Assembly (NCBI GenBank): GCA_964496425.1 | Contig: CAZBZO010000001.1 | Span: 205,744 to 269,743, forward strand | Direction: 5' to 3' | Length of the DNA: 64,000 nt | Origin: an uncultured Candidatus Saccharibacteria bacterium | Lineage (GTDB): Bacteria; Patescibacteriota; Minisyncoccia; Phycocordibacterales; UBA9973 | Shown here: positions 2,371 through 31,009 of the stretch, piece after piece | Position numbering within the stretch: the stretch's first letter is position 1 | Layout: each line of letters opens with the position of its first letter | Notes under the pieces: model-generated | Databases searched by the model: none | What the model was told of the DNA's origin: nothing | The model's input: the letters and a program-made list of their open reading frames with translations, nothing else | Made by a program: the position numbers and the translations under genes

Positions 2371-2709
2371 TTGGGTATGCTTCCCAAAAAAGAGCGCTTC
2401 ACAAGGAAAAGTTTTAGCGAGCTTGTCTCCCATGCCGCTCGAGCAAGAGCCGAGCATATGAGCGTTACATACCGACAAACCACTGACCCACTGAAGAAGG
2501 TTTCTTTTGTCATTTCTAAAAAAGTTGTCAAAAGTGCAGTTGAGAGAAATACACTCCGACGTCGCGGCTACCATGCAGTTTCGAGTTTCGACCAAAAACT
2601 CCTTCGTGGCCTTAAAATAATTTTCTTTTTTAATAAAGGGGTGGAAACTCTTCCCTACGCTTTACTTAAGAAAGAAATACACACGCTTCTAAGCCAGGTA
2701 AAAAAATGA
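2371..2709 (+). CDS. rnpA: RNase P protein component
   Basis: 112 aa basic protein with an RNTLRRRGYHAV-type motif, placed directly after rpmH in the conserved rpmH-rnpA order. Confidence 0.85.
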   Translation: MGMLPKKERFTRKSFSELVSHAARARAEHMSVTYRQTTDPLKKVSFVISKKVVKSAVERNTLRRRGYHAVSSFDQKLLRGLKIIFFFNKGVETLPYALLKKEIHTLLSQVKK

Positions 2710-3800: not shown

Positions 3801-4274
3801 ATGGATACCAACCGCATTCAAAAAAATATAGAAGAATTTCTTACTCTGGCGACATTCCCTCCAAAGGAAATAAGCCTCGAAGAGCATACGGAGACTAAAG
3901 ATCTCTGGGTCTCTACCATGATTGATAATGCAGGCCTTTTAGTCGGTCCTGGGAGTGAAGGATTTCTTGCCATCAATCACCTTATTAATAAAATGATTGA
4001 AAAAGAGACTGGCGAAGGCGAACTCGTCCGTGTAACGATTGATATCAACGGCTACCAGAAAAAGCGAGTAGAAAATATAAAAACCATCGCGCATATGATG
4101 GCTGAGCGTGCGCGATTTTTCAAATCAAGCGTCGAGCTTGATCCAATGAGTGCGTATGAACGCCGTATTGTGCATGAATTTCTTGCGAATACGAAAGATG
4201 TGCTGACTGAATCGACAGGCGAAGGACGTGATCGAAGAGTCGTCATACGGTTTGCCGAACAAACGAGTATATAA
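3801..4274 (+). CDS. jag: Jag/R3H-domain RNA-binding protein
   Basis: 157 aa. The C-terminal R3H-like ...ERRIVHEFLANTKDVLTESTGEGRDRRVVI is present and the gene follows yidC as in many bacteria. Confidence 0.6.
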   Translation: MDTNRIQKNIEEFLTLATFPPKEISLEEHTETKDLWVSTMIDNAGLLVGPGSEGFLAINHLINKMIEKETGEGELVRVTIDINGYQKKRVENIKTIAHMMAERARFFKSSVELDPMSAYERRIVHEFLANTKDVLTESTGEGRDRRVVIRFAEQTSI

Positions 4275-4297
4275 CACTCCAATTTTCTGCGCGTACT

Positions 4298-5650
4298 CTA
4301 TAATCCGAGATCGTATCTCCACAGTGTGGAGTCTTTTTTATTTGTGAAGATAAGGTAGCGTCCTGTGGTGTCTATGAAAGGATCGACGACGTCAAGATCG
4401 TGTCCAAGGGCTGCGAGAGGATTGATTAAGATGTTACTGGCACGTGAAGCGATATCGATTTTCCAAATCGAATCAGTGAAACTTACGACACCTTTGTACC
4501 AAATGTCGGGGTAGAGTCCAGCGGGGGTATTTTCTGGTACTCCGCAATACACAACTGTCCCCGTAGTGTTCCAGGTACATTTTTCAGGCAACGTACTGAG
4601 TCCGAGGGTCGTCGAAGATTGATTTTTTACATCGTAGAGAGCCAATTGGTTGCTCGTTTGTTTACTCACGCCATAGAGGAAGAGAGAGCCTCCTGGATTG
4701 AAATTGGTAGTAAGCCCGGAAATTGGTCCGATGATTTTTGTGAAAAGGCCACTTAGGGGATCTACAGAATACGTATACCCTGATGCCAGGCCGGAAGCTT
4801 TTGTTGTGGCTGAAAGTATGTTTTGCGCAGGCCATGACATCAGCCATTCTGAAAATGGAGACATGAAAACTTGTTTTTTGCCACTACCGTCGACGTTGGC
4901 CATAGTACCGACAACACCTCCTTCAGTTTTTAAATTGTAAAAGATTTTTGTGCCGTCTGGAGATACGACAAGGTCTAAAATGTTTTGCGGCAGAAACGTG
5001 CCCGTGAGCTCTTTTAAGGTACTGACACCACTACTATCCGCGCTCGTAATCGCTCCCGAGAGCACGCCAGCATAGGTTTCAATTGTCTGATTGTCTTCTT
5101 TAGCGTAGCGCAAAATCACGCTGTTGCCACCTGCGCCAAAGAAAGCTTCTTCAATGCGAGGAATAGTTGTATTTGAAACACGTGATTCAACTGCTGTGTC
5201 GAGGAAGCTTTCGTAAATATGGCCTGTCCCCCGCTCCACAAAGCGCGCCGAGGCGACCTCTTCTGTTCCAGTTGATACTGGCATTGTGGGCGTTTCTTCT
5301 GTGGTAAAAGTTTCAAGTTCGCTATCAAATACCGGCAACATGATATTTCTGGTTGCAAGCAATGATGTTGCTCCGGCAATTGAACGAGCTGTTATCTGTA
5401 AAAGCCGTGGGCGAAGTTGGGTGTCGGGATCTTGCAATATGGTATCATCCGGCGGAGGTGTAGTGCCGTCAGGGGTCGTGCCACTTGGGAAAGTGTTAGA
5501 ACCTAAGAATGGGAAAAATTCAGCGAGTGTTGGAGCTGGCCGACCTTCAAGGGCGGCTTTTTTTTTGGCGGCGTAGAACAAATATCCCACTGCTCCCACA
5601 ATGAGGAGAATGACGAGGACGATAATAATGATGTAGGAGCGGCGTGACAT
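4298..5650 (-). CDS. Membrane-anchored hypothetical protein; last gene of the T4SS-like cluster
   Basis: 450 aa. An N-terminal TM helix (IIIIVLVILLIVGAVGYLFYAA) is followed by a Pro/Thr-rich linker and a repetitive beta-rich region. Confidence 0.55.
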   Translation of the reverse strand: MSRRSYIIIIVLVILLIVGAVGYLFYAAKKKAALEGRPAPTLAEFFPFLGSNTFPSGTTPDGTTPPPDDTILQDPDTQLRPRLLQITARSIAGATSLLATRNIMLPVFDSELETFTTEETPTMPVSTGTEEVASARFVERGTGHIYESFLDTAVESRVSNTTIPRIEEAFFGAGGNSVILRYAKEDNQTIETYAGVLSGAITSADSSGVSTLKELTGTFLPQNILDLVVSPDGTKIFYNLKTEGGVVGTMANVDGSGKKQVFMSPFSEWLMSWPAQNILSATTKASGLASGYTYSVDPLSGLFTKIIGPISGLTTNFNPGGSLFLYGVSKQTSNQLALYDVKNQSSTTLGLSTLPEKCTWNTTGTVVYCGVPENTPAGLYPDIWYKGVVSFTDSIWKIDIASRASNILINPLAALGHDLDVVDPFIDTTGRYLIFTNKKDSTLWRYDLGL

Positions 5651-5652
5651 AT

Positions 5653-7845
5653 TTATGGGGTAGTAAACGATGGCCAGGTGCCGTTTATAAAGTCTCCATC
5701 ATGTTTTATTTTTACTGTGTATTTTGTTTTTGATTTCAGCCCGGTAAAGATAGTATTAATATTGCCACTTGCATCAAGAAAGAGATTTGCTGCTTTCGCT
5801 AATTGCTCGCCTTCATATACTCCTGTGTAAAGGTGATCGCTTTTATAAAGGGTGCTGGAAACTGTAATTTTTACTGCAGAGGTTGTGATGTCAGACAGGG
5901 TAACAGTAATACCCTCGGATGTTCCAGATAATGAAGTTGAACTTCCTGATGATGAAGAACTTGGAACTGTGAATGATTTGGTTCCTAAAATTTGTTCTTG
6001 ACTCGAAGTTGAGGCTTTATAAACAATTTCGACTTTATATGTTCCCGCAGTTAGTGGTGTGAGGGGAACGGAATATACACCTAAAGTATTCGGTGTTAAT
6101 GGCGATATGATTCCGGTGGCCAGTGGAGGGATTGGTAATTTTTGTAATTTATATCCTACTCCCACACCATTTTCATATGTTCCAGTTAATGTGCCGCTTA
6201 AGGTAGCTGAAGTGGTGGTGATATTGGTAATATTTGGGGTCATAGAAGAAGTTCCACTTCCTCCACTGAGAATATTATTTGTCGAGTACGGGTTAGTAGA
6301 AGTTGTGGGATTACACCCCCAATTATTTGCAGTAAGTTTTTGTTGGTTGGTTTGTACTTTTGTCACATAATTCCTTGTCTCCGCATAGCCCTTATTAAGA
6401 GTGCATTGCCAGTATGTTTGTCCAGGGCAACTTGTACTTACTTTATTTGCTCCCGGTCCGCCATTATATGCAGCAATACGATATATAACGTTTGAAGTGG
6501 TGCATACTGTATTTGAACTTTTTCCACCACACGCAGTCGACACCAATTGCTTCATGTACTTTACGCCCGCATCAATATTGGTTGCTGGGTCTTTGATTTT
6601 AGATACGTCATACCCAAGACTCTTGAATGTTGGTTCAGTAAGCTGCATTAGTCCGTATGCATGCCCCGTTGTTTGTGAGCCGTCTTTATTTTTGATTACG
6701 AAATTACTTTGTGCATTTGGGTCACCAGCGGACTCAGCATACATATGAGCTTTAGCGAGCGTACAATCCACGCCGTATTTACTACATGATGATTTTAATA
6801 ATGCATCATACGTATCGATATTTGTGTTTACGTTTGCAGCTGCTGTCCCACCAGTAAATGTTCCTCCACCCGAAGTAAATTCGGTAGGATCTTCAATCGT
6901 TATTACTTGTTCTGCAATAGTTGTATCGAAATTCACCAACTGCGGGTTGATTGTGTTTAATATAATATAAGCACCAAGGGCGATGATGAGGCCGAAGATG
7001 GAGTGCGAGATTTTTTCTTTCGCACCTTCTTTGCCGGAGACCGCATCGGTCGACATGTACTGGATACCAGCAACGACGATCATAAAGACTGCCAGCACTC
7101 CACAAAGCGCGATGATGAAGCGAATAATGCCAAGCAAATAGCTTCCAATCCCACTTGTTATATCTACACGACCATTTCCGTCGCCAATGCCAGGGAGTGG
7201 AGCTAAAAGGCAGTATCCTCCCTCGCCTTCTTCACAAGCAGATTCGCTAGGGTCAGACGGGCTTTCACAGTTGGGATCACCAGACCCATCTTCTTTAAAG
7301 TCCACCTTTGTATCACTATCATTGTCTATATCGTCATCACAAGCAAAAATATTACTAAAATCATTTGCTGAAAGCGTATAATCCGCATTATCTTCCCCAG
7401 GTGTTATTAATGGTGGTATTATATGTGTCAGACCATCACCTACGCCGTATTTACTGCCATCACTACGCAAAAACTCAATGTCGAATTTCATTCCTGGTTG
7501 AAGATCTTCAAATGTTACACTAAATTTACTGCTTGGTTTTGATGTAGTTGTGGCGGGTACGGGATTTGGGGAACCTTTCGCTTGGCAGCATATTTTTTGG
7601 TTTGTTGTGCCACTTGATTGTATTTCTTGGGTAAGAAGATCGGCATTTATTGTTGTATTTGTTTTGAGATCGTATGCATTGAAGTACAGTGTGATTGCAT
7701 AAGTGTCCCCGGTTTGTGCGAATTCCCCACGAGGAGTAATCTCTTCAATATCAATTGCAAATGCTTGACTTGGGGTGGCAATAAAAATTCCACCACCGAT
7801 CAATACAGCAAGAAAAAAGAGCATTGTTTTTATAGTAATTCTCAT
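5653..7845 (-). CDS. SLT-domain lytic transglycosylase (VirB1-like) with an internal hydrophobic pilin-like segment and C-terminal repeats
   Basis: 730 aa. A signal peptide MRITIKTMLFFLAVLIGGGIFIATPSQAFA is present. The SLT catalytic region AHMYAESAGDPNAQS...GHAYGLMQL...AYNGGPG is present. Two TM helices (LLGIIRFIIALCGVLAVFMIVVAG / IFGLIIALGAYIIL) and Thr/Ser-rich Ig-like repeats at the C-terminus are also present. Confidence 0.8.
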   Translation of the reverse strand: MRITIKTMLFFLAVLIGGGIFIATPSQAFAIDIEEITPRGEFAQTGDTYAITLYFNAYDLKTNTTINADLLTQEIQSSGTTNQKICCQAKGSPNPVPATTTSKPSSKFSVTFEDLQPGMKFDIEFLRSDGSKYGVGDGLTHIIPPLITPGEDNADYTLSANDFSNIFACDDDIDNDSDTKVDFKEDGSGDPNCESPSDPSESACEEGEGGYCLLAPLPGIGDGNGRVDITSGIGSYLLGIIRFIIALCGVLAVFMIVVAGIQYMSTDAVSGKEGAKEKISHSIFGLIIALGAYIILNTINPQLVNFDTTIAEQVITIEDPTEFTSGGGTFTGGTAAANVNTNIDTYDALLKSSCSKYGVDCTLAKAHMYAESAGDPNAQSNFVIKNKDGSQTTGHAYGLMQLTEPTFKSLGYDVSKIKDPATNIDAGVKYMKQLVSTACGGKSSNTVCTTSNVIYRIAAYNGGPGANKVSTSCPGQTYWQCTLNKGYAETRNYVTKVQTNQQKLTANNWGCNPTTSTNPYSTNNILSGGSGTSSMTPNITNITTTSATLSGTLTGTYENGVGVGYKLQKLPIPPLATGIISPLTPNTLGVYSVPLTPLTAGTYKVEIVYKASTSSQEQILGTKSFTVPSSSSSGSSTSLSGTSEGITVTLSDITTSAVKITVSSTLYKSDHLYTGVYEGEQLAKAANLFLDASGNINTIFTGLKSKTKYTVKIKHDGDFINGTWPSFTTP

Positions 7846-8828
7846 TATTTTGCGAGAGTTATCGTTATATTTACCCCGGCTTCTTGGAAAAGCTTTATGA
7901 CATTTTCAACACCGACTGATATTTTTGCCAGACCCTCATCTTCGGGCTTTTTGCGAAGTACGAGGAGGTTTTTTGTAGCCGGCGTCTCTATCTTTTGATC
8001 ATTGAGTACCCATGAGTATTTCAGCTGAGTATTGGTGGGATTTTTAGGAGAGAAGAAATACGGTGCGACCAGAACTCCTACTTCAGAACCGGAAAAAATG
8101 AAACCATTTCCTAGCGCACGATTATAGAGTGTACCTTCAGCGAGATTGTTTTGGTAGAGCACTATTTCAGGATTGGTCGGGACGATGGTTATTTGTCCTT
8201 CAGATGCAGATCCACCTGAGAGACTAGAAACTCCGGCACTGACTGTTTCCACTTGATGCAAATAGCTTGATCGAAAGGTGTAAGATTGTTTGCCGTAGCC
8301 TGACTCTTCTTGGGCCGGATCGTAATTGTTTTCCCAGGTGTATACCAAATCTTCTGGCCGAGCTGTCGCGCCATTTATTCTCATATTTGGCATGGCAGTT
8401 ACTTTAATACTTGCTTCTTTAGCGGGAAGAGCTTTCCCGCGATAAAACGGTGGCACATATGAGTCCGGAGCTTCATAGAGTATATCTACTTCAGATGGCG
8501 CAAGCACAATCCGCTTTTCGATCACAGTCCCATCACGAAGATCAATGGTCGCTGATACTACGGTAGTAGTGCCGACTCCACCTGAAGTTACGCTAAACTC
8601 CGTCTTTCCAGTGCCAGAGAGCTTTACCGCCTCGTCGACGTACCAGGTAATCGTCGCCCGATTAAGATCAGTAGAAAATGAAGAGAGAGTAATTCGGACG
8701 TTTTCAAGCGGTCCAGGAATAGCCGGAGATGTCGCGACTGAAATGTCACTTCCGACGATTTGCGCATGCGCGCTTGTCGCAAAGCTTAATAGACAAGCTA
8801 CTATAAATAACAATACAAACTTCTTCAT
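7845..8828 (-). CDS. Secreted hypothetical protein in the T4SS-like cluster
   Basis: 327 aa with a signal peptide MKKFVLLFIVACLLSFATSAHAQ. No recognisable catalytic motifs. Confidence 0.55.
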   Translation of the reverse strand: MKKFVLLFIVACLLSFATSAHAQIVGSDISVATSPAIPGPLENVRITLSSFSTDLNRATITWYVDEAVKLSGTGKTEFSVTSGGVGTTTVVSATIDLRDGTVIEKRIVLAPSEVDILYEAPDSYVPPFYRGKALPAKEASIKVTAMPNMRINGATARPEDLVYTWENNYDPAQEESGYGKQSYTFRSSYLHQVETVSAGVSSLSGGSASEGQITIVPTNPEIVLYQNNLAEGTLYNRALGNGFIFSGSEVGVLVAPYFFSPKNPTNTQLKYSWVLNDQKIETPATKNLLVLRKKPEDEGLAKISVGVENVIKLFQEAGVNITITLAK

Positions 8829-8881
8829 GTGCTTATATTATATGCCATTCAAGAAGAATTAAGAAGTGAGAATTTTGCTTT

Positions 8882-10735
8882 CTAATTTTGTGAATTTGAT
8901 CTCTGCCCCGCTTCCGCATTGATCAGGTCTGCTTTGGCTTTCTTGATAGCCAAAACCTGTGAAGGATCAGAGGTGATGATCTGGTCTTCTGTATATGAGG
9001 CGATTGTTTTAATTGCTACGTGCTTAAGTCCGGCGAAGAATATGCCCTCCCCTACAGCCGACTCCAAAAGAAGATACTTTTCTTCGTCAGTGAGGTTGAA
9101 TGTTTTCTGGAGGATGTCTATTGTCGAAGGAGATTGTTTCAATAGTATTTGAATTGAGGAGTTGGTGACGATCGGGATACCGTAGGGGCTTTTCATAAAG
9201 TCTCCGACGTCTTGGGTGATGGTGGCAAGTCCAAGATAATATTTACGGCCGCGTTTGGCGATCGAGTAGAGAAAGCTTGCAGTATCTTCGGACTTCATCA
9301 TCCACCAGGCTTCATCCACGACCAGCAGACGCTTTTTCAAAACTTTACGAACTGAGTTCCAGATAAAATGAGTGACGATGTACATAGCGACTGGTTTGAG
9401 TTCGTCTTCCATGTCGCGCACGGAAAAGACCACAAACTTTCTATTGATATCGACATTGCTCGGACGATTGATAAATCCACTCCATGAACCATGGGTGTAT
9501 TTAGAAAGCCGAGATAAGATAGATTCAGTACCTTCCATACCAGAGAGCACGAGTTCAAAATCTGAAAGTAGCGGCGGTTCGATGTTAGAAAAATCAGATG
9601 TAGCAGTAATATCCTTGATCGCATAGGTTTCTGTAATAGCACGATCAACCAGTGCATCTTCTTCGGGTGTGAGACCTCCCAACATGATGCGGAAAAGGCC
9701 GACTAAATTGATGGTATTGGAGCGGAGCACGTCAGCTGCAGTTTCGTCTTCGCGCGGAATCGCGAGATCAAATGGATTGATATGGTTTTCGGAAGAGAGA
9801 GAAATATTAAAATAACGTCCGCCGATAGCTTCAGCTAAATATTCATATTCTCGCTCCGGATCTATCACGATCACTTCAGTATCAAACATAAGTGTGCGAA
9901 TGATTTCAAGCTTAGTAGCGTATGACTTACCGGAACCGGACTTGGCAAAGGTGATGGAGTTGTAGTTCTCAAGCGAGAAGCGATCGAAAATCACTAAGCT
10001 TGAATTGTGTCGGTTGACGCCATAGAGGATACCTTTGTCGGAGGTAAGGTCGAATGATACAAAGGGAAAAAGTGAAGAAAGGGGTTCAGAGTTGAGCTTT
10101 TGGTGCACTCCGAGAAGGTCGGTGCCGACTGGGATTACACTTTTAAAACCTTCTTCTTGCTGGAAAAGTGCTGGTTTGAGATATACGAGCTTGGCTTCGA
10201 GGATGGATTTGATTTCGTTTTCGATTTTAAAGAGCTCATTTTCATTGTCGGCGTAAATCGTAATATAGAGTCCAACATCAAACATTTTTTCTTGGGCTTG
10301 TTGGAGCGAATCGCGGAGCCCTTCAAGATCGCGGTACGCAGTATCGAGCATCGGATCGCGCACAAGCCCTTTTGCTTCACGAGCATTGATTTGGCTCTGG
10401 ACTTCGGCAACTTTTTTCTGAAATTGTCGCAGAAGCTTGGCCGTCTCGATCGGATGAATGAAAATCGATACATCAAAAATCTTATCGAGGTTGATGATAG
10501 GAGAAAACCAGTTGTCGGTGAGAAAACGCGGATACGAAATCACAAAAAAAGTCCGCGCGATTTTGTCGCCCAAGTTGAGCGCTTTTGGCTCAACTTTAAG
10601 CGCTGACGGCGCGATGATGTCTTGCATCTCAAGTGTCGCCGCTTCATAGATCTCAGCCGGTAACACCGGCAAGACTTGAGCGCTTGAACCATCTTTCCGT
10701 TTATCTTTTGTTTTGATTAAGCCGAATAATGCCAT
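8882..10735 (-). CDS. virB4: Type IV secretion ATPase VirB4/TrbE/TraC family
   Basis: 617 aa. Walker A is AKSGSGKSYATK and Walker B is LLVVDEAWWMM. The ...LGLATITQDVGDF... region is typical of VirB4/CagE ATPases. Confidence 0.9.
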   Translation of the reverse strand: MALFGLIKTKDKRKDGSSAQVLPVLPAEIYEAATLEMQDIIAPSALKVEPKALNLGDKIARTFFVISYPRFLTDNWFSPIINLDKIFDVSIFIHPIETAKLLRQFQKKVAEVQSQINAREAKGLVRDPMLDTAYRDLEGLRDSLQQAQEKMFDVGLYITIYADNENELFKIENEIKSILEAKLVYLKPALFQQEEGFKSVIPVGTDLLGVHQKLNSEPLSSLFPFVSFDLTSDKGILYGVNRHNSSLVIFDRFSLENYNSITFAKSGSGKSYATKLEIIRTLMFDTEVIVIDPEREYEYLAEAIGGRYFNISLSSENHINPFDLAIPREDETAADVLRSNTINLVGLFRIMLGGLTPEEDALVDRAITETYAIKDITATSDFSNIEPPLLSDFELVLSGMEGTESILSRLSKYTHGSWSGFINRPSNVDINRKFVVFSVRDMEDELKPVAMYIVTHFIWNSVRKVLKKRLLVVDEAWWMMKSEDTASFLYSIAKRGRKYYLGLATITQDVGDFMKSPYGIPIVTNSSIQILLKQSPSTIDILQKTFNLTDEEKYLLLESAVGEGIFFAGLKHVAIKTIASYTEDQIITSDPSQVLAIKKAKADLINAEAGQRSNSQN

Positions 10736-10746
10736 AGAATTTAAAA

Positions 10747-11409
10747 TTATTTGTCTTCAAGCTTAATCGCTTGCTGAATGTCACCCGGATTGAATGTTTT
10801 ATAAAAAAGCTCGATGATTTCTTCGGTGCCAAGGAGCACGGTTCGGACGCCCAAACGAGAAAGTCCTTGCTCTACGACACCAGTGCGCTGTTCGAGCTGG
10901 GAACGTTTTTCTTCAAAGTCAGCGAGCTTCTGATCTTTGCCGGCAGTACTTTTTTTTGTATCAGCGCCACCCGGCAGAAAGCGACGGAGTGAACTGCTTT
11001 CATCCCCGAGCTGGGAAGCAGAATACGGTACGACTAAATAAAAATTCTTGGTCATAATATTGACCTGTTCGGTAAATGTCCGAATAAATTCCATGTATTC
11101 ACGAGTCTGGATCTTAAGAAGTGGCTCAAGTTGTTCTTTCATGCGATTTTCAAGCAACAAAAGGTACGGCTTGATATCGAGACGGCGTGACTGGACGACG
11201 ATTTGGCAAGAAAAATCGAGCGAATTGAGAAAATTTTGAAACTGCATAATGATCGCCCGCTGTTCGTCGGCTGATTTCAAGGAAAGATTGACTGATGAGG
11301 CGGCCAAGACAGCTCGCAAGCCGCCGTCTTTAAGGACGATGACCCCGTCGCGTACTTCTTTGATTGGTACGAATGATTGCGTTGCTTTTGCGTCCAAAGC
11401 CATATACAA
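10747..11409 (-). CDS. VirB4 N-terminal-domain-like protein (possible split virB4)
   Basis: 220 aa immediately upstream of virB4. The N-terminal FVPIKEVRDGVIVLKDGGLRAVLAASSVNLSLKSADEQRAIIMQFQNFLNSLDFSCQIVV resembles the N-domain of VirB4/TraC, which in full-length proteins precedes the ATPase domain. Confidence 0.45.
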   Translation of the reverse strand: MYMALDAKATQSFVPIKEVRDGVIVLKDGGLRAVLAASSVNLSLKSADEQRAIIMQFQNFLNSLDFSCQIVVQSRRLDIKPYLLLLENRMKEQLEPLLKIQTREYMEFIRTFTEQVNIMTKNFYLVVPYSASQLGDESSSLRRFLPGGADTKKSTAGKDQKLADFEEKRSQLEQRTGVVEQGLSRLGVRTVLLGTEEIIELFYKTFNPGDIQQAIKLEDK

Positions 11410-11487
11410 CAGTATAGCATTAATGTCAGGCCTCGATTAAATTTTTACTATCGAATATCTCGAGCGAGACTCTACGATTGGGAAATA

Positions 11488-11898
11488 CTATTTCTTATTT
11501 ACGTCGAGCACATCCAGACTCCAAGAAATATCTTTAAGTTTGCTATCAGAGAGCCGCGGTAAGTAGGCAGGCAGATCCGGCAGAGCTTCTACAGCTTTCT
11601 TTTCTGTTTTCTTGTGTTTGGGATCTTTTTTCCAGATGTAGAGCTTGCTGCCGAAGGAATATCGGAAATAAGCCTCGACGATATTGAGGAAAGGCTTGTT
11701 GTTGACCTTGTAAAATGCCAGCGCTGCTGCGAATATGCCAATCGGAGCGATAAGGATGACCGCGACAAAGTGCGGCAAGAGACGCCAGAGTACAAATGCC
11801 AAGCCGGCACCGCCCACGATATAAACGAATTGCTTAAAAGTAAATGGGCCGAAGATCTTGTCTTCAACATCAATAAATTGTGGAACCTGGAAGCGCAT
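11488..11898 (-). CDS. PrgI/VirB3-like small membrane protein
   Basis: 136 aa with two TM helices (FVYIVGGAGLAFVLWRLL / VAVILIAPIGIFAAALAFY) and the N-terminal FQVPQFIDVEDKIFGPFTFKQF. It sits where VirB3/PrgI sits relative to VirB4. Confidence 0.5.
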   Translation of the reverse strand: MRFQVPQFIDVEDKIFGPFTFKQFVYIVGGAGLAFVLWRLLPHFVAVILIAPIGIFAAALAFYKVNNKPFLNIVEAYFRYSFGSKLYIWKKDPKHKKTEKKAVEALPDLPAYLPRLSDSKLKDISWSLDVLDVNKK

Positions 11899-11903
11899 AT
11901 TTT

Positions 11904-12806
11904 TTATTGAGGGATTTCTCGATATGGATCAACGCGCGGTGGAGTGGTGGATGGAGCAGGTGTAGCTGGCTTGATAGAATAGTCTGTCTCATGCTTGGGC
12001 ATATTCATTGGCGCCACGAATTTCTGTTCGGATACGGATACAGGTGCGACTGGCACAGTATTAGGAGTGTTGGTGATTGGTGATTTGATATTTGGGTCTT
12101 GTGGAGCAGCGGGTGGTGGCACGATTTTTTGGATTGTCGGAATAGAAGATGGGAATTTGGAACTCGTACCTGCTGGTGGATTTTCAATACTTTTCAAAAG
12201 ATCGTCGCGGTTCATACTACTGGTACCTGCAAGATTGATGGTTGGGGCAGGTTGTGAAATAGTAGGTGCGGTCGGTGCCTTAAATGGAGGATTTACTGTG
12301 TCGTTTACGATTTCTACTCCAGCGTTTTTGAGAGTGTCAGACGTTGATTGAGCGATAGGAGGAGCGATTGGAGCATCTTCAGGCAAGGAACGATTCTCGA
12401 AGTTGTCTTTTGCTGTATAAACTTTCTGTATTGATTCGCGGATCGGTAAAAAGATTTGATCGCCCAAATCTTTCACAATACCATCGATCATTTCATCGGA
12501 GAGTTTGAGTTGAAGCATCAGTTCATCACGAAATTCGTCAGGCTTGGTCATACCAAGGAGCATCATCGATGTTTCGATTTCAAGACTTCCGAGTTGTTCA
12601 TAGGTAAGCTTGCGAGCTTTGGCGATTTCAAAGAGCTTAGTTGAATAATTATCTGAAATAATTACCTCTTGTATATCTGCAGGTAGAAGTTGAAAGCGGC
12701 TTCTCATCTGCCTCTCTACTTCCGTGAAATTTTCTTCGTTTGTTGTGTCTGTAGAGGAAACTTTCAGAAGAGTACTTCCTATTTTTTGTGCATCGTTTGG
12801 GTTCAT
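11904..12806 (-). CDS. Hypothetical protein with a Pro-rich C-terminus (cluster member)
   Basis: 300 aa. It is acidic and helical at the N-terminus and PxP-rich at the C-terminus. Confidence 0.5.
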   Translation of the reverse strand: MNPNDAQKIGSTLLKVSSTDTTNEENFTEVERQMRSRFQLLPADIQEVIISDNYSTKLFEIAKARKLTYEQLGSLEIETSMMLLGMTKPDEFRDELMLQLKLSDEMIDGIVKDLGDQIFLPIRESIQKVYTAKDNFENRSLPEDAPIAPPIAQSTSDTLKNAGVEIVNDTVNPPFKAPTAPTISQPAPTINLAGTSSMNRDDLLKSIENPPAGTSSKFPSSIPTIQKIVPPPAAPQDPNIKSPITNTPNTVPVAPVSVSEQKFVAPMNMPKHETDYSIKPATPAPSTTPPRVDPYREIPQ

Positions 12807-12833
12807 ATGCTTTGTATATTATACCTTATATTA

Positions 12834-15800
12834 TTAATGATGAGCAGCGGCAGGACTATCCTTGCCACTTTTTTTAGATGAACTTGGGGCAATGTTAAAT
12901 ATACCTTTGAAGATATTAACCGCTGGTCCGCTATATTTGTCTTTATGTTTTGATTCATGCCCATGTGTCCCTTTTCCACCTTTTTCTTCAGTGTGTTGTA
13001 ATTCATGTTCTGCGTCTTCAGCTCGATTATAATAATCAGCAAAATACTTATTTAGACCAATTGCAGTGGTTTTGTTTATTGATTCAATCATACCGCCGAC
13101 AACTGCGCCCGGGATTGTACCTACTCCGGGTAGTACACTTCCAACAACGAGACCTTTGGCTGCACCTTTTGCAAAGCTTTTCGCAAATTCTCTTACGAAA
13201 CGTTTGCCGAGTTCATCAGATCCAACTTTCGTGCTAGTGTCAAAATGCCCAAACTCTTTAATGTTTCCAAAAGCATCTCGCTCTTCATTTTTATGTAGTT
13301 CGTATGGTGAATTCTTCTTCATTCTTTCCCATACGTATTCTTTCACAATAGCTTTTTCATTATTTTTTAGAGCCTTATCAAGTTTTTCAATATCAAGTTT
13401 CTTATTTTCGATAGTTCTTCCGTCATCTTTTACAATATCTTCATGATCATCTTTGACTTTTTTAACTTCATTTTCTGCAAGTGTTCGTCTATCCAATAGA
13501 GGTTGGGGAACTTTTGCATCTTTTCCATTTTGATCTTTATGATCTCGTATTGCATTATTTGCCAACTCAAGTTCTCTGTTTGGTGCTTTCAATTCGTCCT
13601 CCATCTGCTCTTTATGTTGTTTTTGATTTACTTGTGCTGTTTCAAGCGCTGCTTTGGCTGTTTTTGTCTTTGCCTCAATATCTTTTTTCTTCGTCATATT
13701 TATTCCCAGCCTTTCACCTTCCGCAATCATCTTTTTTGTTCCACGTTCTTGCGCTCCAGTAAATCCGCCAGCTGAACCCGCAGTACTTAGATTTTTTAGT
13801 CCTGGGACATTGCCTAGTTGGTTAAGATTTACTCCCACTGCTGTTGAAAGCTTGCTTGCAACTACATTTTGACGGGCATCAAAGCTTGAGGTTTTTAAGC
13901 CCTCAATGGTTTTGAGTTTTTGTCGAGCAATCATTGCGCTTGTTCCAGTACCTGTCGCTTCTTGCCTCCATTTATCTAATTTTTCTTGATTTACGGCTGA
14001 GGCTGCGCGTCCTATAATGTTTCTCCCTGCAAATGCAGTTGCTCCTGCTCCTAACCCAATTGCAGCCCCGCTAACAAATTGAGCTGCACCTGTTGCGCCC
14101 TTAATTACCATCGCACCAATTTCTCCAGAAGCCTTAACTGCATATTCCGTTGCCTTCAAAAGAAGCAGCATGATAATCAGCATCGGAATAATGATCAACA
14201 GGAGTGTCTCTACTAAGCCACCTGTTGTTTGAAGATCAGGGTTAAATGTATTGAGTATCACGGAACTTTTTGCTAAAAGAGATATGAGATATATAAAAAA
14301 CATAAAAATAGGTGCCATAAAGGCAAGTTCAATCGTTTTTTTCCACCACCCCGTCCAGCCTATACCCTCAATATGCTGCATTGAAGGAATGATGTATGTA
14401 ATGAAGGCAAAAGGTGCAAAAATAATCTGTATCCATAGACCAATAATTCTTCCAACAAACGCAAGGCTGGATTTTACAAATGCAAATGTTGCGAATAAAA
14501 AAATGAGTCCAGAAGTGACGATTAACGATATTGTTACTGAAACAGGGAGATTAACTGTCGCATATACCCCTGTACCGTAAGGAGTGGTCAGAGCGCCTTG
14601 AGCCAGATGGTATGCTCCTGTAAAGATGCCCACACCAACTGAGGAGTTGAAACTGTTGTACGCATCTTCATAATAACTACCCACCTGTGCTTCTTTAAAT
14701 TTATTGTAGAAATCTGGATTTGTAAGTATTTGAGGACGAAATGCGCTAACGATGATTCCAGACAATCCTTTTTCGTCAACATCTGTGTGTACCTTACTAA
14801 TTATTGGAGCATAGACAGCTATGTTTCCAGAAGTGTCCTTCGCTGTGACAGTTATTTGATTGTAAAAAAGCCGTGCAAGAATATTTGAAGAGTCAATAAT
14901 GATCTTTGTAAAAAACATACTGAAGTTCAGTAGTATGGCAATAATAACCACTGATATCAGCATTTTTTTTGGATTTGCATGTCCAATTTCCAATCCCAGA
15001 ATAAGAGATATAGCGATAAAGAGTAAAATAAATATAAAAAAGATATTTGAAAGATCGCGGACAATTCCCCATGCATATCCGATGAAGCTCGAACCAGTAT
15101 AGAGTTTTGTACTTAATGTTAATCCTGCCAGTGCATCAAATAAGCTACCCGATAGCGTGAGTAGCCATGCTGGGATGCTGTACATGAAGAAATATAGAAC
15201 TTGTTGAAGACAAGCAGTAATGCTTGAATTACCGATCTCGGTACAGCCGATCTGTTCTTGCAGATTGGTAGTTGTTTTTTGTACTTGGTCATTTAAATCA
15301 TTTACATAACTTCCAGTACCTGTATTTGTTCCTGAGCTACCTCCTCCGATTGTAAGTGGTGGGTTCGGGAAAGTATACGTATCTATTAAGTACGGTGTGT
15401 TAGTGGGACCGGACCCTATAATTCTTAGTGTTATTCCACCATATTTTCCTGCCGCAATATTTGAAATTGTTATTTCAAAATTTTTACTTACACCAGGACT
15501 TACGCCGTCATAGATCGTAACAGCGGTATCCTCAAGATTAGAAATATTACCTTCATTATTAAGTACTACTTGTACTTTTCCAGATGGAATTGATGGGCCA
15601 TAGTTATAACTTCCCTTGACTACTATTGATGTCCCATTTACTTCTGCGGAAGTGATTTCTCCGGTCTGTCCTTCAGCAAAGGTCTTACGTACTTGAAGTG
15701 TCGCAGAAAACGGTGCGAAGGTGCCGGCGAGGATAGTGAATATAAGAAAAAGAGGGAGTATAGTGCGAAGAGTATTCCGGCGTCGACGTGTGGCCGACGC

Positions 15801-15860
15801 AAGATGAGCATGTGTTCCAAGGTGTAAAAATCCAAAAAATTTCTTCATGTAAATAGGCAC
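12834..15860 (-). CDS. Large polytopic membrane protein, VirB6/TrbL-like, with a C-terminal charged coiled-coil tail
   Basis: 1008 aa. It has an N-terminal signal/TM segment and a secreted beta-rich domain. There are at least six central TM helices in a Gly/Ala/Ile/Phe-rich core. The long Lys/Glu-rich C-terminus is predicted cytoplasmic. Confidence 0.55.
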   Translation of the reverse strand: MPIYMKKFFGFLHLGTHAHLASATRRRRNTLRTILPLFLIFTILAGTFAPFSATLQVRKTFAEGQTGEITSAEVNGTSIVVKGSYNYGPSIPSGKVQVVLNNEGNISNLEDTAVTIYDGVSPGVSKNFEITISNIAAGKYGGITLRIIGSGPTNTPYLIDTYTFPNPPLTIGGGSSGTNTGTGSYVNDLNDQVQKTTTNLQEQIGCTEIGNSSITACLQQVLYFFMYSIPAWLLTLSGSLFDALAGLTLSTKLYTGSSFIGYAWGIVRDLSNIFFIFILLFIAISLILGLEIGHANPKKMLISVVIIAILLNFSMFFTKIIIDSSNILARLFYNQITVTAKDTSGNIAVYAPIISKVHTDVDEKGLSGIIVSAFRPQILTNPDFYNKFKEAQVGSYYEDAYNSFNSSVGVGIFTGAYHLAQGALTTPYGTGVYATVNLPVSVTISLIVTSGLIFLFATFAFVKSSLAFVGRIIGLWIQIIFAPFAFITYIIPSMQHIEGIGWTGWWKKTIELAFMAPIFMFFIYLISLLAKSSVILNTFNPDLQTTGGLVETLLLIIIPMLIIMLLLLKATEYAVKASGEIGAMVIKGATGAAQFVSGAAIGLGAGATAFAGRNIIGRAASAVNQEKLDKWRQEATGTGTSAMIARQKLKTIEGLKTSSFDARQNVVASKLSTAVGVNLNQLGNVPGLKNLSTAGSAGGFTGAQERGTKKMIAEGERLGINMTKKKDIEAKTKTAKAALETAQVNQKQHKEQMEDELKAPNRELELANNAIRDHKDQNGKDAKVPQPLLDRRTLAENEVKKVKDDHEDIVKDDGRTIENKKLDIEKLDKALKNNEKAIVKEYVWERMKKNSPYELHKNEERDAFGNIKEFGHFDTSTKVGSDELGKRFVREFAKSFAKGAAKGLVVGSVLPGVGTIPGAVVGGMIESINKTTAIGLNKYFADYYNRAEDAEHELQHTEEKGGKGTHGHESKHKDKYSGPAVNIFKGIFNIAPSSSKKSGKDSPAAAHH

Positions 15861-16027
15861 TGTAATTTTAGCATAGTATTGCTATGTTCGCGCCGATTTG
15901 TTCCATCGAGTACAGACTTTTCATGAGGTGTTAGCGCATCAAGTACAGATATTTACAGTATAACGTAAAAACAAAGGCCATACTACGGTTTTGTGGTACA
16001 AAATGTGATGATACAACGGTACTGGTA

Positions 16028-18805
16028 TTAGTAAATCTCGAAGCGCTCCTCGAAGTCAGCGAACCATTTATTGAGATTGTATGTTTCTTCTTTGATTGGG
16101 TCGTTTTTTGCAATCATAAACTTATTCCACCATCCTCCGCCATCGGCTGCTGGATCTCCATAGGCATATGTTTGTGGAACGAAAGTAAATCCGCAATAGA
16201 CATTATTAGGGATTCCGAGAACGTCCTCATCGAGGTCTCCAAAGAGAGGACATTTTGCTCGAGCATCATTGCCCACTGCTTCAGATGGTGTCGGGAAAAT
16301 ACTTGCCACTTTCATTTGTGGGTACGGCAAAGTAATCCCGGGATATGGATTAGGGGTGGCAATAAGCCAACTATTTGGGTCAGTTGGTGGGCCAGATGGT
16401 TTTGTTGGGTCTTGTCTTCCGCCTGTAATTTTGAGATTGTATTCAAATATCCCTGGATACGGCATCCAGCTGTAGCCATTTAATCGGTAAAATTCCTGGA
16501 CTTCCGGCAGATTTATCTCTTCTGAGCACTGTTCAAGTAGGAATACGTCGTATTCGTCCCCGGTTTGATAGGTGATCATGTCACCCTCAAGCTTTTGTAT
16601 AGCTGCTTCGTCAACGAGGGCAGCCACGGTTGTTTCGAATATTTTTAACTCTTTTCCCATCAAGTCAGCCTGTTCTTCGGATGTAAGATTTGGATCATTT
16701 AAAATACTTTCTACATCCTGGCGAATTTTATCAAGTTTTCGTACTGCGATCCGTAAGCCTTCAGCCCTTGTTTTGTGTTCTGCTAAAGTAGTTTCATAAC
16801 CTGCCAATTTGTAGTATTCACTATATGAGTCCGGAGTGATGGTCGGCATATTTTCGAGGAGATATCCTCCGGTATCAAATTTAACTGGTGAATTTCCAAG
16901 TCCCACTGCTTCATTTTCGTATGGTATCCCAGTGATGTGTGCGGTGTATTCATCAAGTGCTTGATTGAGTGTGGCTTCAGCTTTAGAAAGTGGAAGATGA
17001 GCAATACCATTGATGATTGCCGAACCAATACCTAAGGTTAGTGCGCCGGTGATCTGAGTGACAATACTATCATTAGTATCTTGTTGTTTAATACGAAGCT
17101 CACCAAAGAGATTATCCATTTTTGCTCGGGTATCGTCATACCATGTCGGACGTGGGCCCGGGATACAGTAGTCAAGTAATTGGATATCGTAAATTGTTTT
17201 GGCAAGAGCTGCATCAGTTTCAGGTACTCCGCCAAATCCTGGGGCAGGATCAACATTTGGAAATCCAGTCATAGGATTAATGCCTTTCGGTGGTCCATTT
17301 GGTGCGCCAGACACGAAACTACCAGAGCGTCCTACTTCTGGAACATATGTTTGACCGAGCCATTTTTCTTGAAGGTAAATAATATATGGAAGCTGTGTTG
17401 TTAGATCAACATTTTGGAAAGCATTATAAATACTCTGATATGAACCGTCAGTGTAGAGGCCGCTACTGTTATCACCAAAACCAAAACCACTATTGGCAAG
17501 ATCTTCTTGACTCGTACTACCTTCAGTAAAATTAGTAAGCGAGTTTACGCCTTTATTCACGAGCTGAGCCATGAGCGCATCGAATACGGCGCCCAATGAA
17601 TTGTTGATATCGTCGGAACTAATGAGAGAATCTTTTTTAATATTGAGTGCACCAGTGAGCTGGCTTGAGATAGCAATACCAGGAGTTTGGACTTCAGTTT
17701 TGCGGCAGGTGTTTTCAGCAATTATTTTTTGAAGTTCTAAAATTTCAGCATTTGTTTGGTTGCTTACATTGTTGAGCGCAGGATTATTCTGCAGTGTGTT
17801 ATTTACCCATGCAGAATTGCCGCTACTGTCAGTGGATGTATATCCTGTGCCAATTCCGCCTGTTTGAGTTTTTGGAGGAGGTAAAGTCCAATTCGTATTA
17901 ACTCCACCAGAAGTTGTAACACCTTGCATTGCATACAAAAGATTAAGTTTATCCTGCGCCGCTCTGGCTTCATCTGCATCTGTTTGTGTCAACGGCCCTG
18001 GATCGACACAGGCTTCAAAGTTGAGAAAGCCGCCGCTTTGTGCCAGTCCGGCTCTGACCTCTTCAGCTTTCGTTTGAAATGTGCCTTCGAGCCGCATATC
18101 CCATTCGTCGGCTGCCATCATGGCAAAGCCAACCGGGTTGTTTTGTTGAAATTGAGTCGCAGCTTGGAATGCTCCCCAACCGCCGACGTTGAAGTCGTTA
18201 TAAAAGTCGATATGTGTTGCGCTCGGTGTCCCGGCTTGGATGACTTTGTCGAGTGAAAACTGCGCATTGGCATTGAAGCCAGCTTGGTATTGAGCAAGGA
18301 GCGCCGTCAAAGTATCCTTGCCGAATGGAAAATTGGCAGAATCAAATGCGATTTCGTTGGTGAAAGCCACGATTTCTTCTTCGGCAATGCTTTTAAAAAA
18401 CGATCCGGGATCACGCACATAAAATGGTGCGCCTTTAAAACCGTTGTTGATCCAGTTGACAGTATCAGACGAGAGCTTGGCTAAAAGTCTTTTAGAAATA
18501 TACTGAGCAATAGCTTTATCACAACCTTCGCGCTTATTTGCAGCGACATCGTTAGTAGCGACAGTAGTGTCGAGTGCGCCGAATACACTTCCTAAGGCAT
18601 CACCGATCTTGCTGCCAAGTCCGCTACATTTCAGTGCGACGCCGCCGATACCACCAATTGTGGCTTGCAAGCCGAATGAATCACTTACTTGTGCGTAGGT
18701 TTTTTCTGGTACAAATAAAAATCCTGCTGGTGCGAGTAGAGACGCAATCAAAAAACCACTTGCAATTTTTGTTTTCAAATCTCTGACGCGTAACTCGTAA
18801 CTCAT
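16028..18805 (-). CDS. Large secreted/surface hypothetical protein (cluster member)
   Basis: 925 aa with an N-terminal signal/TM segment (IASGFLIASLLAPAGFLFVPEKTYAQ). Composition is Gly/Asn/Thr-rich. Confidence 0.55.
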   Translation of the reverse strand: MSYELRVRDLKTKIASGFLIASLLAPAGFLFVPEKTYAQVSDSFGLQATIGGIGGVALKCSGLGSKIGDALGSVFGALDTTVATNDVAANKREGCDKAIAQYISKRLLAKLSSDTVNWINNGFKGAPFYVRDPGSFFKSIAEEEIVAFTNEIAFDSANFPFGKDTLTALLAQYQAGFNANAQFSLDKVIQAGTPSATHIDFYNDFNVGGWGAFQAATQFQQNNPVGFAMMAADEWDMRLEGTFQTKAEEVRAGLAQSGGFLNFEACVDPGPLTQTDADEARAAQDKLNLLYAMQGVTTSGGVNTNWTLPPPKTQTGGIGTGYTSTDSSGNSAWVNNTLQNNPALNNVSNQTNAEILELQKIIAENTCRKTEVQTPGIAISSQLTGALNIKKDSLISSDDINNSLGAVFDALMAQLVNKGVNSLTNFTEGSTSQEDLANSGFGFGDNSSGLYTDGSYQSIYNAFQNVDLTTQLPYIIYLQEKWLGQTYVPEVGRSGSFVSGAPNGPPKGINPMTGFPNVDPAPGFGGVPETDAALAKTIYDIQLLDYCIPGPRPTWYDDTRAKMDNLFGELRIKQQDTNDSIVTQITGALTLGIGSAIINGIAHLPLSKAEATLNQALDEYTAHITGIPYENEAVGLGNSPVKFDTGGYLLENMPTITPDSYSEYYKLAGYETTLAEHKTRAEGLRIAVRKLDKIRQDVESILNDPNLTSEEQADLMGKELKIFETTVAALVDEAAIQKLEGDMITYQTGDEYDVFLLEQCSEEINLPEVQEFYRLNGYSWMPYPGIFEYNLKITGGRQDPTKPSGPPTDPNSWLIATPNPYPGITLPYPQMKVASIFPTPSEAVGNDARAKCPLFGDLDEDVLGIPNNVYCGFTFVPQTYAYGDPAADGGGWWNKFMIAKNDPIKEETYNLNKWFADFEERFEIY

Positions 18806-18812
18806 AATTAGT

Positions 18813-19712
18813 TTAAATTATACCATGGCTACTAAAGTATTCCCCGAGAATTTTGATTGCAGCCACGGCGTCATTTTCTGCATCATTGTATTGAGAGATC
18901 CCTACAAGACCTAAGAGTGGATTGTCTAAAAGCGTACTTGCATTCTTAAGGGCTGCTCCTGTTTTAGCGTAGCTGTTTATAAGGACGATGTGGTTGTTTA
19001 GAGTGTCTATGGGTACGATGAGCGCTTTTAATTCCTTGGCCATATCTTCGTATGCTTGTCCGATCTTGGCGACGTCTGTCATTGTGTCAGCATCCTCGGT
19101 GTCTATTCCTTCGGCAAGCACAGCGTACTCGTGTCCAGTTGAATTTTTATACGCTACCTGTACAGCTTGAAAAGCATCGTAGTATTCTTGAATTACAGGC
19201 GTTGTTACTTGAGTAGTGGTAATATCGGAAGAATTGTATACATCAGGCAATACTTGAAATTCATTTAGATTTTTGCCGAAGCCAAGCGCAAGATTGGTGA
19301 TGGAGTTTTGGTTGAGGTCACCAGAAGCTTTGAGGGATGAAACTGTAGAGAAGAATTCTCGAGCAAAACGTTCAGTTTCATTTATTTTTCCATCAGGATT
19401 ACCATCACCGCTATCAGTATTGAGAGCATCACGGCGGGCGTTGATTTCTACTTCGTCCGACATTCCATCTCCATCACTATCCTTTTTATTTGGATCAGTC
19501 CCCCAGAGCTCTTCTTCCCAGTCAGGAATCGTGTCGAGATCGGTATCACGGTTGATCACATCCTGCACAAGCATCCCTTCCCGAGAATCCTCTTTTGTAA
19601 AAATAGTTTTTCCACCAGATAAATATGCATACACTCCCCAGGTGATGAGAAGAAAAACAAAGAGTGAGCCGGTGATACGTACAAATTTTTTACTCGGAAG
19701 ATAGGTAGTCAT
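18813..19712 (-). CDS. Membrane-anchored protein with Asp-rich Ca-binding-like repeats
   Basis: 299 aa with an N-terminal TM helix. DxDxDG-type repeats are present (DTDLDTIPDWEE, DPNKKDSDGDGMSDE, DSGDGNPDGKINE). Confidence 0.5.
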   Translation of the reverse strand: MTTYLPSKKFVRITGSLFVFLLITWGVYAYLSGGKTIFTKEDSREGMLVQDVINRDTDLDTIPDWEEELWGTDPNKKDSDGDGMSDEVEINARRDALNTDSGDGNPDGKINETERFAREFFSTVSSLKASGDLNQNSITNLALGFGKNLNEFQVLPDVYNSSDITTTQVTTPVIQEYYDAFQAVQVAYKNSTGHEYAVLAEGIDTEDADTMTDVAKIGQAYEDMAKELKALIVPIDTLNNHIVLINSYAKTGAALKNASTLLDNPLLGLVGISQYNDAENDAVAAIKILGEYFSSHGII

Positions 19713-19739
19713 AGAAAAAGTAAAACAGTGTATAGCGAA

Positions 19740-20279
19740 TTAAAATGAAGGTGTTTTAGAGATATTGTAAAGTCCAGGCGGCGGTATGCCTACTTCAAGT
19801 ACAGGGAATGGTATGTTTCCAGATGGAGTTGGAATCCAGCAATCGCTAAAATTAGGGATCCGAGTGCTTTTGCCTAAAATCCAGGTTCCCGGTACTGGGG
19901 TGGGCTTCTGTGGATTGAGTTGTGAAAACACAGCGTATGGTACTAAACTATAGACTGTAGAAATTGCTCCTGCCGTAATAAGCGCTGCTTTGCCGCCTTT
20001 TGAAATTGTGGAACCGTCCGTGTTTTTACCTGTGTGAGTAGGGAGTGAAGCAACATACCCTGTTCCCGCTGCTGAAGCTATAGCACCACCGATGTTACTT
20101 TTGAGGACAACTGGCCCCGTAATCGTTGGTATGCACATAACCCCAGGGATTGTTGGTGTTAAAATTTTCCCGCCAAAGCTTTTAGAGTCAAAACTACCAA
20201 ATGCACCAAAAACGATTGTTGGTAGAAGAGTCCCAGCAATAGCAAGCAGTATGAGTGTTCCTAGCGTGTGTTTACACAT
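19740..20279 (-). CDS. Small secreted Gly/Thr-rich hypothetical protein
   Basis: 179 aa with a signal peptide MCKHTLGTLILLAIAGTLLPTIVFGA. It is the first gene of the minus-strand cluster. Confidence 0.45.
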   Translation of the reverse strand: MCKHTLGTLILLAIAGTLLPTIVFGAFGSFDSKSFGGKILTPTIPGVMCIPTITGPVVLKSNIGGAIASAAGTGYVASLPTHTGKNTDGSTISKGGKAALITAGAISTVYSLVPYAVFSQLNPQKPTPVPGTWILGKSTRIPNFSDCWIPTPSGNIPFPVLEVGIPPPGLYNISKTPSF

Positions 20280-26788: not shown

Positions 26789-26816
26789 AGTCTCCGTTTG
26801 TATTTCTTATAGTAAT

Positions 26817-28613: not shown

Positions 28614-28723
28614 ATATTATGTTTATTATACTACAAAAAAACTAGTCAGTCAAATACCCCATAGATTACTTCTCTATTTTAAAACAATTCGGTTTAAATA
28701 CCTACTAAAACAAGAAATTTCTC

Positions 28724-30985: not shown

Positions 30986-31009
30986 AAAGTATATTGTAGC
31001 AATAATATT

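Follow-up and report, generated by a model that had tools for sequence, protein, structure and literature searches.

A probable Patescibacteria type IV secretion locus encoding a two-piece VirB4 and a pilin-hairpin protein joined to a lytic transglycosylase domain

The 64-kb stretch of contig CAZBZO010000001.1 analyzed here (the whole of which we call the window) contains a type IV secretion system (T4SS) gene cluster at positions 4298-20279 of the minus strand. It comprises eleven open reading frames (ORFs), all on the same strand, named g1 (4298-5650) to g11 (19740-20279), whose products measure, in that order, 450, 730, 327, 617, 220, 136, 300, 1008, 925, 299, and 179 amino acids (aa). The intergenic gaps range from -1 to 78 bp, with the exception of the 167 bp that separate g9 and g8, and the guanine-cytosine (GC) content of the cluster (0.40-0.45) is like that of the rest of the window. 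Together, these ORFs encode a two-piece VirB4, a VirB3/PrgI protein, an extended VirB6/TrbL protein, one protein that combines a pilin hairpin with an SLT domain, and five to six lineage-specific envelope proteins.

The secretion core and its conserved setting

The VirB4-type ATPase is encoded by g4 (8882-10735, minus strand, 617 aa). Its product matches the NCBIfam family conju_CD1110 with 372.5 bits, against a cut-off of 325, over profile positions 183-734 of 752, as well as the Pfam family P-loop_TraG (2.9e-25). Among PDB sequences it retrieves the C-terminal domain of the Thermoanaerobacter VirB4 (4AG5, 6e-39) and TrwK (2e-5). The Walker A (AKSGSGKS) and Walker B (LLVVDE) motifs are intact, and the best curated family, CD1110, is of the MPF-FATA type. 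Compared with a full-length VirB4, g4 lacks some 180 positions at its N-terminal end. The adjacent g5 (10747-11409, minus strand, 220 aa) encodes a TrsD-like protein, which aligns to positions 2-135 of the CD1110 profile (1.8e-6), to positions 102-233 of VirB4_plasma, the N-region of the VirB4 of mycoplasma integrative and conjugative elements (ICEs) (4.4e-11), and to the TrsD/TraD family NF041427 (2.2e-6). In public gene calls it carries a precomputed match to the TraC-like family PF26593, and a single-sequence search against PDB sequences returned noise only. Since g5 covers CD1110 positions 2-135 and g4 positions 183-734, the split of VirB4 is real and corresponds to the TrsD/VirB4 arrangement; on this profile coverage, g5 is to be read as the detached VirB4 N-terminus. 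Two genes upstream of virB4, g6 (11488-11898, minus strand, 136 aa) encodes a small VirB3/PrgI-like membrane protein, matching Pfam PrgI at 5.2e-12 and 46.6 bits (gathering threshold 27), with a hydrophobic hairpin at aa 24-66 in a hydropathy scan.

The polytopic protein encoded by g8 (12834-15860, minus strand, 1008 aa) had no direct match in Pfam or NCBIfam scans, and a single-sequence search against PDB sequences yielded noise only. A search with its membrane core returned 120 homologues, among which P0100, P0104, P0111, and P0114 lie above the threshold of PF04610 (TrbL/VirB6), and the TrbL domains of these four align to g8 aa 264-600. The hydropathy scan shows a signal/anchor segment and at least six membrane segments, and an AlphaFold (AF2) model of aa 1-660 places a helical membrane core with confidence (predicted local distance difference test, pLDDT, >90). 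From an N-terminal anchor, the protein runs through a poorly modeled ectodomain and a TrbL-like membrane core (~aa 210-600) into a long C-terminal region that is charged. In a Foldseek search of the model against the PDB, the top two matches were TrwI/VirB6 of R388, at a nonsignificant E of 0.18-0.27 that we do not count as independent proof. By transitive homology to PF04610, g8 is assigned to the VirB6 family, as an extended member.

To place the cluster among its relatives, g4 was scanned against one genome per GTDB species. At least 590 relatives were found, of which the best 80 were used for synteny. The VirB4s of these 80 are 76-90% identical to g4, and their genomes, which are metagenome-assembled, are nearly all labeled Patescibacteria, mostly Paceibacteria, Nomurabacteria, and Parcubacteria. 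Every gene of the window was compared by tblastn with the 80 related loci, 42 of them full-length. The order uvrD-ksgA-g10-g9-g8-g7-g6-g5-g4-g3-g2-g1 / jag-yidC-rnpA / dnaA was recovered in nearly all 80 loci. Given this recurrent gene order, we regard the locus as vertically inherited and not as a recent mobile element.

The median identity to the best tblastn match in the related loci amounts to 82% for g4, 63% for g5 (present in 79 of the 80 loci), and 51% for g6 (75 of 80), and falls to 35% for g1 (68 of 80), 34% for g3 (77 of 80), and 31% for g8. It is 29% for g9 (36 of the 42 full-length loci), 28% over half its length for g7 (detected in 42 of 80), and 27% for g10 (30 of the 42 full-length loci). 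No tblastn match to g11 was found in the 80 loci. At its position, between ksgA and g10, some loci (L003, L012, L016, L059, L060) have an ORF for a small secreted protein in which an 'FGGKI' motif comes after the signal peptide, and many have none; g11 is thus an optional, fast-evolving member of the cluster, which otherwise consists of ten conserved genes. Because they keep the same position and order across the genomes of related species, the accessory proteins are conserved, lineage-specific partners of the T4SS core.

A pilin-hairpin protein with exchanged cell-wall enzymes

The product of g2 (5653-7845, minus strand, 730 aa) is a chimeric protein. At the N-terminus, a signal peptide leads into a variable ectodomain that includes an acidic stretch; next come a two-helix pilin hairpin (aa ~229-304), an SLT domain (aa 355-468), and a Ser/Thr-rich C-terminal region, in which FN3-like modules may be present. 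The SLT lytic transglycosylase domain is detected at 1.5e-18, and its motifs ES, GLMQ, and AYNGG are intact. The hairpin matches the T4SS_pilin family PF18895 at 4e-4 and 20.8 bits, below the threshold of 26.6, and weakly resembles the pilin-like protein Mbov_0395 (0.003). No other pilin-like hairpin occurs in the window: a profile of the orthologue hairpins, whose alignment includes g2 itself, gave 130 bits on g2 and nothing elsewhere.

The positional orthologues cover aa 200-320 of g2 only, that is, the hairpin. Their 71 ORFs encode between 171 and 774 aa (examples are L002:12870-14108, L007:12844-14256, L020:12854-13846, L025:12882-13979, and L027:12114-13187). What these proteins have in common is a signal peptide, an N-terminal ectodomain that is variable, and a hairpin with the consensus Y.LLAPLP...GGI.YM...LNTINP. 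Forty-five of them were scanned for domains. PF18895 was found in 38 (E <= 0.001), with several above the Pfam threshold, and TrbC/VirB2 in 3. In the region after the hairpin, the C-terminal domain was YkuD in five, VanY in five, NlpC/P60 in three, SLT in two (g2 of the window and L006), SLT_2 in one, and Peptidase_M15_4 in one; a single Amidase_5 match falls in the same protein as the NlpC/P60 match of L027 and adds no further orthologue. The domain coordinates place the hairpin first and the enzyme after it. The enzyme differs even at VirB4 identities of 85-90%: SLT in the window and in L006, VanY in L002, M15_4 in L007, and none recognizable in L003. Some orthologues thus carry non-lytic enzymes (YkuD, VanY), and others have no recognizable enzyme.

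The hairpin itself belongs to a very large family. An exhaustive profile search with it retrieved 42,531 family representatives, and a word-indexed search 15 matches only. Among 93 long members of the family, PF18895 was found in 81 and a recognizable wall enzyme in 14. Some members contain the hairpin many times over, with 17 copies in P0268 (1775 aa), 10 in P0350 (1147 aa), and 4 in P0256 (618 aa); such proteins might be polypilins, in which several pilins are fused into an array, or artefacts of gene calling.

Since only the hairpin is conserved among the orthologues, g2 seems best viewed as a VirB2-like pilin with an SLT domain as its cargo. By analogy with VirB2 topology, both of its ectodomains would face outward, and the target of the enzyme could be the cell's own wall, as for VirB1, or the wall of a host. 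In an alternative scenario, to which we give tentative credit although we do not favor it, the T4SS core would be formed by g4, g5, g6, and g8, and g2 would be a membrane-anchored hydrolase of the VirB1 type for the cell's own wall, with the hairpin as a mere anchor and no pilus. The hydrolases PrgK, TraG, and TrsG of monoderm T4SSs are indeed membrane-anchored and modular (PMC12102498), the hairpin of the window scores below the Pfam threshold, and a 430-residue C-terminal extension seems hard to fit in a helical pilus. Nevertheless, the hairpin falls within the T4SS_pilin/VirB2 family, with its tens of thousands of representatives and with orthologues above the Pfam threshold, g2 is the sole pilin-like gene in the window, and a wall hydrolase sits poorly with orthologues whose enzyme is non-lytic or not recognizable.

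The description of g2 as a pilin with cargo can be carried further. The single T4SS pilin of Paceibacteria might be a modular cargo pilin, whose filament or stalk presents an enzyme matched to the host wall and so breaches or remodels the host envelope at contact; taken as a whole, we consider this proposal unlikely. Its architecture, a pilin hairpin with cargo and a hypervariable N-terminal ectodomain, and the swapping of the enzyme are directly observed in the orthologues, and the host-directed role of the enzyme is speculation. Were that role true, the swapping would track host range, and the enzyme would offer a concrete, testable handle on host access. In the literature searched, which includes PMC12102498 and PMC10633639, we found no description of pilin-enzyme fusions, although this search was incomplete. 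The fusion of a pilin-like protein to a cell-wall enzyme that varies in type from one close relative to the next is therefore possibly new.

Accessory envelope proteins and neighboring genes

Direct Pfam and NCBIfam scans returned nothing for g1, g3, g7, g9, and g11, as for g8. The g1 protein (4298-5650, minus strand, 450 aa) has one N-terminal membrane segment in the hydropathy scan, which would anchor it, and probably a TolB/PD40-type beta-propeller ectodomain, a fold suggested by a weak TolB match (0.035) of its family profile against PDB sequences and by weak PD40 matches in 4 of 41 orthologues. The occurrence of PG_binding_1 in 3 of the 41 and of an LPXTG-type match in one suggests a cell-wall association of this probable propeller protein. 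The g3 protein (7845-8828, minus strand, 327 aa), whose stop overlaps the g2 start by 1 nt, is a secreted protein with three tandem beta-sandwich (Ig/FN3-like) domains. The AF2 model (mean pLDDT 93.1) shows a signal peptide followed by the three domains, and Foldseek matched generic Ig/FN3 arrays only, such as phage Hoc and the SiiE adhesin. The family has 938 homologues in the database; the 120 of them that were listed are all without a Pfam domain. A VirB8- or VirB9-like fold was considered for g3 and dropped, the model being a generic triple Ig-like array.

Of the remaining proteins, g7 (11904-12806, minus strand, 300 aa) is conserved in its N-terminal part, ends in a Pro-rich tail, and showed no membrane segment in the hydropathy scan. 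The large g9 protein (16028-18805, minus strand, 925 aa) has an N-terminal hydrophobic segment, is secreted or anchored, and keeps conserved Cys, Trp, and Gly positions; its orthologues show scattered adhesin-type domains (F5/8 type C, Big_7), which Pfam does not detect in g9 itself. The N-terminally anchored g10 (18813-19712, minus strand, 299 aa) carries a TSP3-type calcium-binding repeat (PF18884 TSP3_bac, 26.6 bits, cut-off 25) with a DSDGDG motif, and its family profile matched, among PDB sequences, only a calcium repeat of a biofilm protein, which is uninformative. Finally, g11 (19740-20279, minus strand, 179 aa) encodes a small secreted protein with a signal-like N-terminus in the hydropathy scan.

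On one side the cluster meets jag/R3H (3801-4274, plus strand), which is convergent with g1, followed by yidC (3006-3770, plus strand), rnpA (2371-2709, plus strand), and dnaA (579-1931, minus strand), all identified by Pfam. The convergent g1/jag junction (4274-4298) is kept in related loci. On the upstream side, the border kept in relatives consists of the housekeeping genes ksgA/rsmA (20351-21193, minus strand) and uvrD/pcrA (21147-23081, minus strand), both co-oriented with the cluster and recognized by Pfam and synteny. The descriptive claims of the earlier note, made from the sequence alone, are upheld. The eleven co-oriented genes, the VirB4 ATPase with a separate N-domain-like ORF, the PrgI/VirB3-like protein, the lytic transglycosylase with an embedded hairpin, the calcium-binding-like Asp repeats (in g10), and the boundary at jag/yidC were all recovered by profile searches or from the gene map; the VirB6-like nature of the 1008-aa protein was reached through its homologues, without a direct match.

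Further upstream on the T4SS strand, four big, strongly charged ORFs (1069, 598, 753, and 502 aa) occupy 23579-32518. They have no family match, look in part like coiled coils, and include one with a membrane segment. Beyond them, at 32797-33978 on the plus strand and 12.5 kb from the cluster, lies a gene for a LysM and Peptidase_M23 protein; these domains have been noted in VirB1-like proteins of Patescibacteria (2025 survey, PMC12102498). A XerC/D-like tyrosine recombinase (42539-43453, plus strand; Phage_integrase, 1e-42), 22 kb from the cluster, is probably a housekeeping dimer-resolution enzyme and not an ICE integrase. It is the only integrase-family gene in the window, and none adjoins the cluster.

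The 16-kb cluster and ~12 kb of further upstream minus-strand genes are transcribed toward jag/yidC/rnpA/dnaA, and transcription of the cluster would run head-on to the replication fork if the origin lay between rnpA and dnaA. DnaA-box-like 9-mers number 17 across the window against 15.3 expected, which is not above chance, and we therefore do not claim to have mapped the position of oriC. Three one-mismatch 9-mers of this kind occur at each of 457-554, just past the dnaA 3' end, and 49188-49229. Promoter and terminator scans stayed at background level and gave no operon boundaries.

Interpretation of the locus and comparison with published systems

We put forward, with good confidence, that the cluster is a chromosomal, vertically inherited Patescibacteria T4SS in a Paceibacteria/Nomurabacteria genome, of the type whose VirB4s form a clade nested in MPF-FATA, and that it probably serves as a translocon at the interface between epibiont and host. 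Systems of this kind are well documented. In a survey of 3,035 Patescibacteria genomes, VirB4 was found in 2,417, and most of these VirB4s form one clade nested in the monoderm class MPF-FATA (Quinonero-Coronel et al. 2025, Microb Genom, PMC12102498). The same survey reports VirB3/PrgI, VirB6, and VirB1, VirB2-like pilins of PF18895/PF04956 that are unusual for monoderms, and, as the commonest accessory component, TrsD, which is akin to the VirB4 N-terminus but made as its own protein and usually encoded next to virB4. In Paceibacteria and Microgenomatia, virB4 lies near dnaA, dnaN, rnpA, ksgA, and rpmH, for which its authors propose a possible gene-dosage effect (PMC12102498). As for function, transposon sequencing (Tn-seq) showed that Southlakia epibionticum cannot grow epibiotically without its T4SS and pilin genes, and the export of proteins, in place of DNA, was suggested as a possible task of the T4SS (Wang et al. 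2023, Cell, PMC10633639). Additionally, tubular structures, possibly T4SS pili, were described at the parasite-host interface of a cultivated relative (2026 preprint, bioRxiv 10.64898/2026.06.21.733656).

In this context, the VirB4 ATPase with VirB3 and VirB6 would form the membrane translocon channel, and g2, probably together with g1, g3, g9, and g10, would contribute, as building blocks or as decoration, to a conduit or contact structure outside the cell. With its SLT domain, g2 would open peptidoglycan, the cell's own or that of the host. The machine is probably located at host-cell contact and would move proteins or other macromolecules, conjugation not being its task. These steps draw on knowledge of the T4SS family and on published work on relatives, and the component identities were computed here.

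Several points weigh against this interpretation. Pfam and NCBIfam scans found no VirB8-like component in the cluster, and the g10 and g1 family profiles found no VirB8-like PDB sequence. The placement of g4 in the Patescibacteria clade is suggested by its identity to Paceibacteria VirB4s and by context, and the VirB6 assignment of g8 is made by transitive homology, with a structural match to TrwI that is not significant. Furthermore, the essentiality data come from S. epibionticum, a member of a different class (Saccharimonadia). As regards VirB8, it is largely undetectable in Patescibacteria (PMC12102498), and the gap in the window agrees with its rare detection across the phylum.

VirD4, VirB11, and relaxase were found in no ORF scanned across the window, in line with the earlier note. 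To our knowledge, VirB11 is not part of monoderm T4SSs. VirD4-like coupling proteins occur in most Patescibacteria genomes, usually far from virB4, and relaxases are almost always absent (PMC12102498). The window thus permits no conclusion on whether the T4SS is 'reduced', as had been suggested; the reading of the system as non-conjugative is probably right and agrees with PMC12102498 and PMC10633639. The term 'orphan' for its surface proteins no longer fits, as the families of g1, g3, g8, g9, and g10 recur at the same positions in dozens of Paceibacteria genomes.

The earlier note had also linked the cluster to DNA uptake through comM. A machine of the Helicobacter ComB or archaeal Ced type, taking up host or environmental DNA for nucleotides or transformation, perhaps with comM, would likewise leave the window without relaxase and coupling protein, as in ComB. 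comM does lie in the window (34029-35567), T4SS loci of the class ABY1 adjoin comF, recG, and radA (PMC12102498), and there are weak partial matches to CedB and CedD. However, these matches are short P-loop fragments far below the cut-offs (CedB 32.6 bits against 700; CedD 16 against 600), and comM is 14 kb off, behind ksgA, uvrD, the large unannotated ORFs, and the LysM-M23 peptidase. Moreover, deletion of comEC in S. epibionticum, the only relative amenable to genetics, abolished competence and not viability (2025 review, PMC12857230), whereas its T4SS is essential (PMC10633639). The proposed link to comM is unsupported, and we regard a DNA-uptake machine as improbable.

That the cluster is the remnant of an ICE, a conjugative element since decayed or domesticated, which lies near the origin by chance and has the accessory genes as cargo, is very improbable: its VirB4 is closest to the conjugative CD1110-type and mycoplasma ICE VirB4 families and the VirB4-plus-TrsD layout is that of the plasmid pGO1 subclass (PMC12102498), but the gene order and the position between ksgA and jag recur across the 80 species-level genomes, no integrase or relaxase adjoins it in the window, and its GC content is like that of its surroundings. 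The conserved position and order, the lack of an integrase, and the matching GC therefore indicate that the acquisition was ancient and that this is now a core chromosomal locus.

Few machines have been shown to be indispensable for these ultrasmall bacteria to live as epibionts. The Patescibacteria T4SS is one of them, and the window offers a clean Paceibacteria example of it. As a sighting it is nothing new, the composition, split VirB4, missing relaxase, and origin-proximal site having been published in 2023-2025 for the phylum and class. Four or five unnamed envelope proteins are possible structural or host-contact candidates.

Compared with the Gram-negative VirB/VirD4 systems and the Trw system of R388, the cluster has in common VirB4 (with TrwK as a match), a VirB6-like core, a VirB2-family hairpin, and a VirB1-type SLT domain. 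In contrast, the VirB7/VirB9/VirB10 outer-membrane core, VirB5, VirB11, and VirD4 are missing from the window, and the Patescibacteria envelope is, according to the literature, of the monoderm type. The resemblance extends to the MPF-FATA conjugative T4SSs (pGO1 TrsD/TrsE, pCF10 PrgH/I/J/K, Clostridioides difficile CTn2 CD1110, and mycoplasma ICE Mbov_0395/0397), with which it has in common a CD1110-type VirB4, TrsD-like and PrgI-like proteins, a membrane-anchored hydrolase, and a hairpin weakly resembling Mbov_0395. Unlike these, the locus is fixed in the chromosome and not on a mobile element, and the window has no relaxase, coupling protein, PrgB-type adhesin, or recognizable VirB8-like PrgL/PrgD.

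With the T4SSs of the Patescibacteria clade (PMC12102498; SEML1_0006-0019 of S. epibionticum, PMC10633639) the locus shares VirB4 accompanied by a separate TrsD-like piece, VirB3/PrgI, VirB6, a VirB2-like pilin of PF18895, and a hydrolase of the VirB1 type. Neither relaxase nor coupling protein lies nearby, and the chromosomal site is beside dnaA, rnpA, and ksgA, as reported for Paceibacteria. The locus differs from them in two respects: g1, g3, g9, and g10 are Paceibacteria-specific partners that are not named components in those papers, and here a single pilin-like gene, and not an array, is fused to an SLT domain. What is of interest beyond the published system is this pilin-enzyme fusion, together with the conserved set of accessory genes.

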